From positions 20,386 through 84,385 of the forward strand of contig JBAYHI010000005.1 in NCBI GenBank assembly GCA_041666205.1: 64,000 nucleotides of DNA. The letters run 5' to 3'. The position numbers and the translations under genes are program-made. Shown one piece after another: positions 51,276-54,843 of the stretch (the first letter of the stretch is position 1; each line of letters begins with the position of its first letter). The notes below the pieces were generated by a model. The model was given only the letters and a program-made list of their open reading frames with translations. It ran no database searches and had not been told where the DNA came from. The stretch comes from Patescibacteria group bacterium. GTDB taxonomy: Bacteria > Patescibacteriota > Patescibacteriia > UBA9934.

Positions 51276-52571
51276 TTATTCGGTTTCAATTTGCGCACCA
51301 ATGCTCGCGAGTTTTCCGTACAAATCTTCGTATCCGCGTTCCAAGTGTTCGACGCCATCGATTTCTGACGTCCCGTCTGCTGCGAGCGCTGCAGCCACGT
51401 AGGCCAGTCCTGCACGAATGTCAGGAACGGTCATAGAGGATGCTTTGAGTGGCGTTGGACCTTTGATGACTGCAGAATGCTTATAGTTTTGATCTTTGAA
51501 TCGACACGGAAGTTCCCCAAGACAATTGGTGAAGAGCGTGATGTCTGCACCCATTTTTACGAGCGCTTCGGTGTAAGCGAACCGATCTTGCATAACGGTT
51601 TCGTGCACAACGGACGTGCCCTCGGCTTGTGTCATCACAACCACGAATGGCTGTTGCCAGTCCGTGGAAAATCCCGGATACGTATCGGTTTCAAGTTGAA
51701 TGCCGCGATAGTGCTCGCCGCCTTTGAATAGAATTCCGTCGGGTTGCGCTTCCCATTCCCCACCGATCATACGCACCGCATTGAGGAAGGTAATCATGTC
51801 GCGGTGGCTTGCGCCCTCGCAGAAAATTTCTCCGCGCGTGGCGAGTGCGAGACACGCAAACGACGCAACCTCAAGTCGATCTGGCAAAATGAAATGCTCG
51901 CACCCGTGCAATTTTTCCACGCCAATGATTTCAATTTCTCGGCCAGCGCCGGTTTCAATAATGGCACCCATCTTTTGGAGCATCATGATGAGCTCGGTGA
52001 TTTCCGGCTCAATCGCGGCATTCTTTAAGACCGTGCGACCTTCGGCAAGGACGCTAGCAAACAAAACGGTTTCCGTGGCGCCAACGGAAGGATATGGAAG
52101 CTCAATCGAGACGCCTTTCAATCGCCCATCAACAGACAAATGATACCCATCTTTTTCTTCTGAAACGACTGCACCCATCTTTTGCAATGCTTCCAAATGA
52201 AAATCTACGGGACGCGGACCAATCTTGTCGCCACCGACTTTAATAACGACCGCCTCGTGCATGCGATGCAAAAGGGGCGCTGCAAGCAAAATCGACAACC
52301 GATTTTTTCGGGTAAGTGCCAAAGTAGACGTTTGCGAAATCGTTGGCGTTGTTGCGGTAAGCGTATGATCGGCAAGCGCGGTTTTTCCGCCAACGAGCTC
52401 CACGAGTTCACGCGCAATATCGGTTTCCTGCTGAAGCGGGACGTTTTGAAGCGTCACTTCCCCATCCGTGAGGAGCGAGGCAATAATCATTTTAGACGCC
52501 GCATTTTTTGCGCCACTGATTTTTACACGACCCTTCAGCGGTTTTCCGCCAGTGATTCGAAGTTTTTGCAT
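51276..52571 (-). CDS. murA: UDP-N-acetylglucosamine 1-carboxyvinyltransferase
   Basis: MQKLRITGGKPLKGRVKISGAKNAASKMIIASLL...; EPT fold, active-site Cys region; 431 aa. Confidence 0.9.
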   Translation of the reverse strand: MQKLRITGGKPLKGRVKISGAKNAASKMIIASLLTDGEVTLQNVPLQQETDIARELVELVGGKTALADHTLTATTPTISQTSTLALTRKNRLSILLAAPLLHRMHEAVVIKVGGDKIGPRPVDFHLEALQKMGAVVSEEKDGYHLSVDGRLKGVSIELPYPSVGATETVLFASVLAEGRTVLKNAAIEPEITELIMMLQKMGAIIETGAGREIEIIGVEKLHGCEHFILPDRLEVASFACLALATRGEIFCEGASHRDMITFLNAVRMIGGEWEAQPDGILFKGGEHYRGIQLETDTYPGFSTDWQQPFVVVMTQAEGTSVVHETVMQDRFAYTEALVKMGADITLFTNCLGELPCRFKDQNYKHSAVIKGPTPLKASSMTVPDIRAGLAYVAAALAADGTSEIDGVEHLERGYEDLYGKLASIGAQIETE

Positions 52572-52644
52572 AAGATTTGGCTATTGAGCCATAACATTCA
52601 TGGTGCCACAGAACCCAAAAGCACTCAAGTGAGCGATGCACAAA

Positions 52645-52674
52645 CAAAAAATTGCCTTACAGCAATTTTTTTGG
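52645..52674. terminator. bidirectional intrinsic terminator aaaaaattgc-cttaca-gcaatttttttgg
   Basis: 6-bp stem flanked by A6 and T7. Confidence 0.45.
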
Positions 52675-52943
52675 CGCCTCACGACGGAAGTTCGTAAGAT
52701 TGGTCCTCTGCCACATGTGGGCATCGCGTTATCTTTGCGTGCGTCCAAGCCAAGGCCCGGATGTCGCTAAAGGATAATCGCAGCAAGACCGCTGAATCCC
52801 CGCACTCAAGCCTTGAAGGCTTGAAGCTAGACTGCGCAATTTCGCAGTGATCGGTCGGATTCTTTCAAACAGTGAATAGCCAATTACGCGCTTCCGTCTG
52901 AAGCACATTTATTATCCCGCGAAAGACCCATGGGCGCAATCAC

Positions 52944-52967
52944 AAAAAAATCGGGATAAGCCCGATT
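52944..52967 (-). terminator. intrinsic terminator after ndk (atcgggc-ttat-cccgat + T7 on minus strand)
   Basis: Seen directly. Confidence 0.55.
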
Positions 52968-53009
52968 TCTTCACAGGATGCACACAATTTTTGCACAGGC
53001 TAAATTCTC

Positions 53010-53477
53010 CTAGATTCCTTCTCCGATATGGAATCGATCTGTGAGTTTCTCGTAGGCGTAGATTTCATTTTCCTTGAAAAATCGTGCGATTTCTACAGTG
53101 GCGGATTCAGCCGAATCAGATGCATGGACCATATTTGAAGGCACATTCATCGAAAGATCAGCGCGAATCGTGCCAGCATCAGCCTCGCGAGGATTTGTAG
53201 CGCCAACGATTTTACGAACTTCCGAGATAACGTCCAGGCCCTCAAGTACCATCGCAACCACAGGCGTTTGCATCATATAGCGCTTCAAATCGCCAAAAAA
53301 TGGCTTTGCGCTAAGGTGGCCGTAGTGCTCATTGAGCGTTGCTTCGTCCAAAAGCATGAACTTCATGCCAACGGTCTTTAATCCTTTTCGCTCAAAGCGG
53401 GAAATAATCTCGCCGACAAGCTCCCGTTGCAAAGCATCGGGTTTCAAAAGGACGAGGGTACGCTGTATTTCTGCCAT
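53010..53477 (-). CDS. ndk: nucleoside diphosphate kinase
   Basis: MAEIQRTLVLLKPDALQRELVGEIISRFERKGLK...NMVHASDSAESA (active-site His). Confidence 0.9.
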   Translation of the reverse strand: MAEIQRTLVLLKPDALQRELVGEIISRFERKGLKTVGMKFMLLDEATLNEHYGHLSAKPFFGDLKRYMMQTPVVAMVLEGLDVISEVRKIVGATNPREADAGTIRADLSMNVPSNMVHASDSAESATVEIARFFKENEIYAYEKLTDRFHIGEGI

Positions 53478-53536: not shown

Positions 53537-53556
53537 ACAGGGCTTTCAGCCCCTGT
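53537..53556. repeat. REP-like hairpin acagggctttcagcccctgt
   Basis: Same GGGGC...GCCCC design as the 5649/5699/5983 hairpins. Confidence 0.45.
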
Positions 53557-53561
53557 GTTGT

Positions 53562-53975
53562 CCTCCACTTTTCTTTGCTGGCCCAAAGAAAAGTGGAGAG
53601 AAAAGAAATGGCCTGCTTACGGCCCATCCCAGCCTTCGCGCTTGGCTGGCCCGGAAAAACGTATGAAGAACCAAACCACCCAGGGCAGGAACGTTTTTCC
53701 GGTCGGGCCTTGTTCGATAGCCTGTTTTTATTTGAATCGCCGGCTCGAGCATTGTCAAAGAGGAATCCGGCGTTCGGACAGGAATTGCACGGCCACCTCC
53801 GGCACATCCAAAGTTGTACGGGCATGGCGCGCCATGCCCGTACGCGGGATCCATTGCCGGAGACTGGCCGTGCCCTGGCCGACGACGGATAAGACAACAT
53901 GCCTCTTTGACAAGCGCAGACCCGGCAGCCAGTTTCTTTCCCTCCACTTTCTTTGCTGGTCCAAAGAAAGTGGAG
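53562..53975. repeat. composite repeat element copy 2 (hairpin - 87-bp core 53622-53708 - aaagaggaatccggc - ~170-bp insert incl. 28-bp perfect palindrome 53816-53843 - hairpin ctccactttctttgctggtccaaagaaagtggag)
   Basis: 87/87 identity of core with 5792-5878; terminal hairpins conserved; insert unique to this copy. Confidence 0.65.
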
Positions 53976-53985
53976 ATAACAGGAA

Positions 53986-54843
53986 TCAAAACTCAAAACT
54001 CGCTACCTCGATTTTCTTCCCGTCTGACAAAAGCCGAATATCTCCCAACTGATCGGTACGCAAAATCTCTGCGCCAACCGACTGCAGACGGTCCACAATC
54101 GTCGGGCTTGGATGCCCGTAGTCATTCTCCCCAACCGAAATAACTGCGTACTCGGGTTTCACCATTTCCAAAAACGTGCTCGACGATGAACTAAGACTCC
54201 CATGATGCCCGACTTTGAGCACATCAACGTCAACGAGACCTGATGTCATTTGCGCTTCTTCTTCAATCCCCGCGTCGCCTGTAAAAAGAACCTCGACATC
54301 TCCGTCTTTCAGCAACAGCACAAGCGAACTGTCATTTTCGTCGTCCACATTTTCTACAAAATCCAACAATGGCCACAAAATACAAAGCGATCGATTCTCA
54401 CCCAACTCCAAACAATCTGGTGCGGACGCAATTTCATCATTCGTTTTCCCCATAAACTCTTTTCCAAGTTCCGTGCTGTACGTCGCATTCGGTCGCCAAA
54501 CTTCCCCAAACGAATACCGATCTGCCACCGCATTTAGTCCAACCAAATGATCGGCATGATCGTGTGAGGAAATCATATACTCAATATTGCGATCCCAAAA
54601 CGGCATCACAGCGGAAAGTTTCTCAATCACCTGCTGACTGGGCCCGCCGTCGATCAGAATTTGTGTAGATCCACTTTGAATGAGCGCAGAGTCTCCCTGC
54701 CCCACATCGAAAAACCACACGGCTAATTTTTCATCGCTAAAAATCGTCGGCGACGCAATCGATTGCACCGCCACGGTCACCAAACAAAACGCAACAAGAC
54801 CTACAAATGAGAAAAAAGCTTTTTTCGTTTTACGATAAGCCAT
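53986..54843 (-). CDS. ComEC/Rec2-type metallo-beta-lactamase domain protein (C-terminal module of ComEC encoded separately)
   Basis: MBL motifs ISSHDHADH, GDAG, HHGS; start set at MAYRKTKKAFF (TM anchor); overlaps upstream ComEC membrane ORF by 43 nt in another frame. Confidence 0.65.
   Translation of the reverse strand: MAYRKTKKAFFSFVGLVAFCLVTVAVQSIASPTIFSDEKLAVWFFDVGQGDSALIQSGSTQILIDGGPSQQVIEKLSAVMPFWDRNIEYMISSHDHADHLVGLNAVADRYSFGEVWRPNATYSTELGKEFMGKTNDEIASAPDCLELGENRSLCILWPLLDFVENVDDENDSSLVLLLKDGDVEVLFTGDAGIEEEAQMTSGLVDVDVLKVGHHGSLSSSSSTFLEMVKPEYAVISVGENDYGHPSPTIVDRLQSVGAEILRTDQLGDIRLLSDGKKIEVASFEF

Follow-up and report, generated by a model that had tools for sequence, protein, structure and literature searches.

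What occupies the 438 non-coding bases (52572-53009) that separate ndk (53477-53010) from murA (52571-51276) on the minus strand of a Candidatus Uhrbacteria genome (Patescibacteria, or candidate phyla radiation, CPR)? The locus lies in a 64,000-nucleotide (nt) stretch of contig JBAYHI010000005.1 (assembly GCA_041666205.1), called the window below, and the minus-strand order around it is ComEC-like gene, MBL-fold gene, ndk, the gap, murA, M50 peptidase gene, rpsL, rpsG and fusA. A preliminary description had proposed that the gap holds an independent minus-strand gene for a non-coding RNA (ncRNA), and this proposal is borne out by conservation, compensatory base changes, an excess of G-U pairs, a −10 box, a terminator belonging to the RNA itself and an inverted copy in one relative (L008). 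The gap probably contains a stand-alone small-RNA gene, the structured product of which would act in trans and belongs to a family not in Rfam 15. The element has a conserved, covarying and strand-specific structure, promoter- and terminator-like signals at fixed positions and no coding potential, it occurs once in inverted orientation, and it is new at the level of the RNA family. Its structured body of 229 nt, which begins and ends with the terminal bases of the outermost helix P1, spans 52676-52904 of the minus strand, as delimited by nhmmer, covariation and G-U counts.

Relatives were collected by searching 80 murA-centred genome loci (numbered here with an L) with the gap sequence in iterated nhmmer runs, in which the conserved element came out at ~253 nt, corresponding to 52918-52667 of the window. 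The RNA is present in 24 other distinct sequences, 18 from species-level genomes of Uhrbacteria and six that a pattern scan added from metagenomes (one of them truncated), with E values down to 1e-58. Three size classes can be told apart: type 1 (216-275 nt; 14 members including the window), type 2 (230-265 nt; three members) and type 3 (161-178 nt; six full-length members, to which the truncated L093 and a 200-nt variant, L011, are added). A covariance model of 162 positions, built from the six sequences of type 3 only, the smallest class, finds the window copy (18.8 bits, E 0.006-0.017), the type-2 copies and several type-1 members, and therefore the classes share sequence and structure. The window itself has one copy.

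The structure is supported by covariation. In an alignment of 13 type-1 sequences, the RNAalifold consensus comprises 43 pairs, 18 of them with compensatory (double) changes, and standard pairs fill 93.2% of the cells as against 31-49% when the 3′ partners are slid by 1-3 columns; in none of 500 column shuffles were pairing, double-change counts or covariation score as high as observed. The cross-class alignment (A4) was left out of the pair counts, three type-1 members being only partial in it. Since G-U cells far exceed A-C cells in the minus-strand orientation of the window (61 G-U/U-G against 10 A-C/C-A), the RNA is read from the minus strand. Folding of the region against shuffled sequences gives z = −4.3 for the minus and −4.8 for the plus strand, and none of 100 shuffles folds as well. 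The earlier statement that the gap has no plausible open reading frame (ORF) also holds, in that no ORF is conserved across the homologues; their longest ATG-ORFs range from 0 to 67 amino acids (aa), and the matches are short peptide fragments in mixed frames.

The overall fold, given here on the minus strand throughout, is closed by a long stem (P1, P2) and contains a four-way junction with P3, which carries two inner hairpins, a long P4 and a small P5. In P1, GCUUCAGACGGAAG (5′ strand, 52891-52904) pairs with CUUCCGUCGUGAGGC (3′ strand, 52676-52690) over 14 base pairs (bp) with one bulged G; its sequences are unrelated between size classes yet always complementary (GCUUCAG..., ACCGACG..., UGUCCCC...). 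P2 is formed by CGUAAUUGGCU (52878-52888) and GGACCAAUCUUACG (52693-52706), the latter with a bulged A, and is supported by pair counts and the consensus fold. A compensatory change from G-C to A-U is found there in L018 and L057, and direct reading of the sequences indicates that the outer pairs covary as well (CGUAA/UUACG, AUCG/CGAU, ACG/CGU). The joiner J2/3 (52862-52877) ends in GAAAG (52866-52862), a motif occurring in all 24 members, with all five bases invariant in 13/13 type-1 sequences. In P3, GAAUCC (52857-52862) pairs with GGAUUC (52794-52799), which lies within a conserved GCGGGGAUYCAGCGGU block; 143 of the 144 cells of this helix hold standard pairs in 24 full-length sequences of three size classes, and two positions switch between A-U and G-C. 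Inside P3 stand hairpin Pb (CUGCG-AAAUUG-CGCAG, 52832-52847), which is 100% paired with two of five pairs compensatory, and hairpin Pc (UCAAGCC-UUCAA-GGCUUGA, 52805-52825), in which all six pairs are compensatory.

On the far side of P3, the joiner J3/4, AGCGGUC (52787-52793), is conserved and apparently unpaired; its A, C, G, G and U are invariant in type 1, and GGCGGC (type 2) and AGCGC (type 3) are the equivalents. P4 (52725-52782) is a long irregular hairpin, peripheral and variable, whose tip CCGGGC-CUUG-GCUUGG (52760-52745) shows 95% pairing with compensatory changes; beyond the tip, each homologue folded alone gives a long hairpin with basal stems of differing sequence. P5 (GCC-CACAUGU-GGC, 52710-52722) is a small hairpin followed by AGAG (52709-52706) and varies by class (CCCC-AAU-GGGG in type 2; AUGGC/GCCAU, GAUAGC/GCUAUC and AUGACC/GGUCAU in type 3). 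The short helices that had been listed in the preliminary description are genuine parts of these stems, either covariation-supported or individually predicted: gcgaaattgcgc is Pb (52847-52832), caagccttcaaggcttg is Pc (52825-52805), and cccggatgtcgc together with agccaaggc makes the P4 tip (52760-52745). The most conserved bases of the whole RNA are the unpaired joiners, UGAAAG before P3, AGCGGU after P3 and AGAG before the 3′ strand of P2 (P2′). Because P4 is reduced to a hairpin of 4 bp in most members of type 3 and the extra hairpin Pa, following the 5′ strand of P3, is optional, the periphery is dispensable and the junction forms the constant part.

Several further pairings can be drawn in some members. 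A pseudoknot between the segment after the 5′ strand of P3 (GACCG in the window, AGGCAGC in type 3) and that after its 3′ strand (CGGUC, GCUGCCU) is found in some members only, and it is not claimed because others have the local hairpin Pa at that place. An alternative P2, in which the 3′ UCAC would be bound by a further GUGA(A) located ahead of GAAAG, can be formed in types 2 and 3 and in four type-1 members and is not universal. Types 2 and 3 carry UCGUGA twice in the 5′ part of the RNA, before UUUGCC and before AAG (L021, L023, L034, L016, L038, L113, L085, L098, L083 and L011), with just one complementary UCACG toward the 3′ end; alternatively, the first copy can take part in a local hairpin GUGAUU...AAUCAC, and a two-state fold is possible in these classes. 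Dimerization by loop-loop contact through the palindromic P5 loop ACAUGU was rejected, the loop not being conserved across classes. An antisense seed, UUGGCUAUU of the RNA against AAUAGCCAA just upstream of the murA AUG, is unconserved in L003 and L018 and was treated as chance. The murA 5′ leader of the window has a small hairpin, UGGCU-CAA-UAGCCA (52577-52593), at the expected ribosome-binding site; it is complementary to UUGGCUAUU at 9 of 10 positions and is not kept in L003 or L018.

A stretch of the gap had been described as bracketed by two terminators, and both hairpins are indeed present on the minus strand, each with a U-run after it. The ndk terminator (52937-52967; hairpin sequence GAAAUCGGGCUUAUCCCGAUUUUUUU at 52967-52937) is recognized from its sequence and minimum-free-energy fold as a hairpin AAAUCGGG-CUUAU-CCCGAUUU followed by a U7 run, and terminators also stand directly after ndk in the three relatives read (L021, L034 and L036). 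The RNA's own putative terminator (52646-52672; hairpin sequence AAAAAAAUUGCUGUAAGGCAAUUUUUU at 52672-52646) has the form A7-UUGC-UGUAAG-GCAA-U6 and is supported by sequence, fold and relatives; the transcript is predicted to end near 52646, with a length of ~259 nt. Most members have a terminator-like hairpin within ~15 nt after P1. These hairpins are self-contained, differ in sequence and are set off from P1 by an A-rich spacer, and no overlap or alternative pairing of the terminator with the 3′ strand of P1 or with the RNA body is visible in the 24 members. A simple terminator scan missed both terminators of the window, in our opinion since the A-tracts pair with the U-tracts.

At the other end, a −10 box, GATAAT (52911-52916), stands ~7 nt upstream of the first paired base, with a predicted start at ~G52904. 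A −10-like hexamer (GATAAT, GATACT, TACGAT, TATAGT or TAGAAT) ends 4-8 nt before P1 in all 24 members and is preceded by an extended TGn in many of them. A weak −35-like box, TTGCGC (52934-52939), can be read 17 nt upstream of the −10 box and scores under the cut-off of a simple promoter scan; type-1 relatives have TTTGCA, TTGCG or TTGAC at the equivalent position with a spacing of 17-18 nt.

Two observations concern the sequence beyond P1. A tRNA-3′-end-like N-CCA (GCCA or ACCA; 52673-52676 in the window) follows P1 in 9 of the 14 type-1 members; because the remaining five and all members of types 2 and 3 lack it, it is probably just the start of the terminator A-tract. In L113 (1570-1712, minus strand), L085 (2855-2995, minus strand), L083 and L017 (1040-1170), a long hairpin of ~120 nt comes directly after the RNA, with a common ACGUAC-N6-GUACGU hairpin at its center; this long hairpin may represent either a terminator of elaborate form or a small repeat element that has been inserted.

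All distinct members with usable flanks are placed shortly after ndk and ahead of murA (the truncated L093 shows murA only), and lineages whose Ndk has no more than 43% identity keep this position as well. The L008 copy is inverted between the two genes with its own promoter and terminator and with all conserved bases intact; it points away from murA and converges on ndk, and no ORF lies downstream of it. The gene that follows the RNA differs among loci. An ORF of ~412-434 aa (~415 aa) without a Pfam match, not found in the window, lies between the RNA and murA in seven loci, and in L057 the gene directly downstream is a 216-aa ORF. Many Uhrbacteria have the ~415-aa ORF ahead of murA and after the RNA (or ndk) (L005:1585-2877, L017:1196-2440, L021:1375-2646, L023:1581-2885, L016:1680-2918 and L034:726-1970); as it also occurs in loci without the RNA, it was rejected as a dedicated partner. 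Promoter boxes, terminators, the lack of a conserved ORF and the intact inverted copy, as predicted from sequence, are those of a generic stand-alone small RNA (sRNA).

The distribution appears narrow and confined to one part of Uhrbacteria. A pattern scan of a metagenome collection returned 70 loci; because only 12 of these were real, six of them duplicating genome loci, the family looks rare in that collection, and both viral matches were due to chance. Phage and plasmid collections gave no similarity to the RNA, and the literature searched has no mention of such an RNA, nor anything on lineage-specific ncRNAs in Patescibacteria. Judged by MurA, the nearest species-level genomes are metagenome-assembled genomes (MAGs) named Candidatus Uhrbacteria or Patescibacteria (60-81% MurA identity). 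The labels of the MAGs filed as 'uncultured Gammaproteobacteria bacterium' (L006-L009, L011, L016-L018, L020 and others) look wrong, because their MurA is 70-76% identical to that of named Uhrbacteria and they have the same CPR-type gene order.

The main rival to a stand-alone RNA is a cis-acting leader of the murA operon, namely a riboswitch or a protein- or tRNA-sensing attenuator whose terminator would be conditional. The order of promoter, conserved junction domain closed by P1, intrinsic terminator and ORF is the classic layout of terminating riboswitches, aptamers typically combine a conserved junction with a variable periphery, the RNA precedes murA, or the ~415-aa ORF and then murA, in the same orientation in every distinct sequence except one, and the doubled UCGUGA of types 2 and 3 could compete for the single 3′ UCACG as a possible switch. 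We nevertheless consider a leader unlikely. A riboswitch has an expression platform, that is, a pairing that competes with the sensor, but none was found in the 24 members: the terminators vary, are separated from P1 by the A-rich spacer and have no visible complementarity to the 3′ strand of P1 or to other parts of the RNA, for which reason no anti-terminator is seen. The gene directly downstream is inconstant (murA, the ~415-aa ORF or, in L057, the 216-aa ORF), and in several relatives −10-like boxes can be read between the RNA terminator and the murA start codon. The L008 copy faces away from murA with no ORF downstream and yet keeps the conserved bases, and since it has its own promoter and terminator, it argues against the element being a long murA 5′ untranslated region (5′UTR); as to the shared orientation of the remaining sequences, the whole neighborhood is co-oriented anyway. 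The same inverted copy, being on the strand opposite to ndk, speaks against the RNA being a structured 3′ part of the ndk transcript (a 3′UTR element or a processed sRNA) without a promoter of its own. Such an origin would fit the location of most members 75-110 nt downstream of the ndk stop codon, including lineages with Ndk only 43% identical, but ndk and the RNA are separated by a strong ndk terminator, both in the window and in relatives, and a promoter is the best explanation for a −10 box conserved at a constant distance from P1; we hold such an origin to be very improbable. Least probable of all, to the point of being hardly credible, is conservation at the DNA level, whether as protein-binding palindromes or as the relic of a mobile element, with the RNA fold incidental. 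Conserved DNA palindromes (AATTGGCCAATT, GGATCC and CCACATGTGG) and a hairpin-bounded cassette of mobile or invertible appearance just upstream of ndk would suit this explanation, but selection on DNA does not produce the strand asymmetry of 61 G-U against 10 A-C cells, compensatory changes keep the pairing of P1 and P2 across more than 200 nt, and there is one copy per locus, with no flanking repeats and no phage or plasmid match.

A highly divergent housekeeping RNA (6S RNA, RNase P RNA, signal recognition particle (SRP) RNA or transfer-messenger RNA (tmRNA)) that escapes the standard models would also have paired ends, as in 6S, 4.5S and RNase P RNA. In CPR bacteria, genomes are reduced and unusual RNAs common, and no canonical copy of the four RNAs was found by Rfam within the 64-kb window. 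Rfam 15, a check suggested beforehand, was searched with the whole window at gathering scores, with the region 52450-53150 on both strands at E ≤ 10, with nine relatives at E ≤ 5 and with the smallest homologue at E ≤ 10. The window yielded four tRNAs only at gathering scores, and the region, the nine relatives and the smallest homologue matched no catalogued family apart from junk (asX2 on the ndk terminator, Xist, adapt33, Hrs1 and isrN). The lack of a match, named beforehand as one half of a refuting outcome, does not refute an RNA supported by covariation, but it counts, together with the anatomy described below, against a disguised housekeeping RNA, as does the fact that half of the close relatives lack the element at the one position where it is known, which would be odd for an essential RNA. 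Altogether, we regard this explanation as quite improbable.

The weak resemblance to SRP RNA that had been noted for parts of the gap finds no support. AGCCAAGGC and CCGGAUGU, which we take to resemble words of Escherichia coli 4.5S RNA, adjoin on the plus strand, that is antisense to the RNA, at the variable P4 tip. Neither RF00169 nor RF01854 matched the window, the region or the relatives, and the motif of SRP helix 8, GNRA-capped and with Ffh-binding internal loops, is missing, the tetraloop of the P4 tip being variable (CUUG, UCCG, UAAG, UUCG, CAAG) and its stem covarying freely. 6S RNA, which binds the RNA polymerase holoenzyme and serves as a template for pRNA synthesis, is a stand-alone stable RNA of ~200 nt, and in E. 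coli it is co-transcribed with a protein gene located downstream of it. The present element would likewise be a stand-alone RNA of ~200 nt, its 5′ and 3′ ends meeting in a long closing stem, but 6S RNA folds as a rod whose one large central bubble imitates an open promoter, whereas the covariation-supported fold here is branched (P3, P4, P5, inner Pb and Pc), with a four-way junction and an inner three-way junction, and RF00013 gave no match. As to tmRNA, which is marked by a tRNA-like domain (acceptor stem with 3′ CCA, T-arm) and a tag-peptide reading frame, ARAGORN found none in the window, there is neither an Rfam match nor a conserved ORF, and the N-CCA after P1 is confined to 9 of 14 type-1 members.

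RNase P RNA shares with the element paired termini, an A-rich joiner (GAAAG) into a conserved helix, an optional or variable periphery and some GNRA loops, and the UGAAAG joiner ahead of a helix presumably recalls, if loosely, the J3/4-P4 region of that RNA. No match to RF00010 or RF00011 was obtained, however, and the P4 pseudoknot of RNase P RNA, in which CR-I (GAGGAAAGUCC) and CR-V (ACAGAANNCGGCUUA) pair across P2, has no counterpart. GAAAG is followed by GGAUCC, the partner of which is nested 60-100 nt downstream (P3) and not between P2′ and the 3′ strand of P1 (P1′), where only ~2-11 variable bases are found. The element, at 161-275 nt, thus differs from RNase P RNA in lacking this long-range pseudoknot, CR-I, CR-V and the specificity domain.

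Group I introns interrupting tRNA genes have been reported for Patescibacteria (PMC13011429). A tRNA gene of this kind, in which a 7-bp acceptor stem and D, anticodon and T arms would surround a group I core, was rejected for the present locus: P1 is a continuous 14-bp helix with no T-arm before its 3′ strand, neither RF00028 nor a tRNA model matched, and the smallest members, of 161 nt, are too short. A parallel in kind is the raiA motif RNA, an orphan structured bacterial ncRNA that was found by comparative genomics and has Firmicutes and Actinobacteria as hosts. In common with such orphan RNAs, the present one has a size of ~200 nt, a multi-helix junction, conserved unpaired bases and a narrow range, and it recurs beside one gene while apparently being an independent transcript, with a function not evident from the sequence. 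No family of this kind was matched in Rfam 15 at E ≤ 10, and the element differs from these RNAs in its CPR host, in its neighbor ndk and in its fold.

We infer independent transcription of the element into an RNA of ~230-260 nt, which would work in trans via its junction core. A promoter of the sigma-70 type (−35 TTGCGC, 17-nt spacer, −10 GATAAT) would start minus-strand transcription at ~G52904, the first paired base, and the intrinsic terminator would halt it near 52646. The ends of the RNA would then be sealed by the closing stem of P1 and P2, which opens into the four-way junction, and the stable folded RNA would act in trans, its junction binding a protein partner or a ligand or being itself catalytic, rather than serve as a leader that switches the neighboring gene. 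The junction is taken as the putative working part because the unpaired joiners are the most conserved bases and the peripheral stems differ in length or, in the 161-nt forms, are absent.

Several points weigh against a trans-acting RNA of this kind. The start and the end of the transcript are predictions, and the function is read from anatomy only. The element occupies a single fixed place and is co-oriented with murA in all but one distinct sequence, and a cis-acting leader would look alike. Of 36 loci with ndk upstream of murA, 18 have the RNA and the rest lack it at that position; the gap of the 18 RNA-less loci is too short or is filled with unrelated sequence, and as the survey covers this position only, absence is not separable there from relocation. 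The fold itself is also incomplete at two places, in that MAFFT alignment with RNAalifold recovered the tip of P4 only, its basal stems not being established, and that no pseudoknot is established.

The window contains a second non-coding feature nearby, a cassette of ~440 nt (53547-53990) between ndk and the MBL-fold gene. Its edges are two copies of a 34-36-nt perfect hairpin (53563-53598 and 53942-53975) of the sequence CTCCACTTT(T)CTTTG-CTGGYC-CAAAGAAA(A)GTGGAG, and it also holds a 28-nt perfect palindrome (53816-53843). In L003, the homologous segment is reversed with the flanking gene order unchanged. The cassette looks like an invertible or miniature inverted-repeat transposable element (MITE)-like element, and the long overlapping ORFs on both of its strands are probably artefacts.

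For the biology of these bacteria, the locus offers a clean example of CPR expression signals, with an extended −10 box that would start transcription at the first paired base and with A-tract/U-tract terminators. Patescibacteria make up a large share of bacterial diversity, and in so small a genome an RNA of 160-275 nt that keeps a conserved junction core and has covariation behind its fold is unlikely to lie idle; therefore it presents a concrete target for metatranscriptomics, structure work and the hunt for partners. More speculatively, and with rather low probability, the RNA may be the core of a CPR-specific machine that has no equivalent among studied bacteria, such as a new trans-acting ribozyme or the scaffold for a new ribonucleoprotein, or a trans-acting sensor of a cell-wall or nucleotide precursor. 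If this were true, the RNA would be retained in genomes of ~1 Mb for a function linked to the reduced and host-dependent way of life of these organisms.

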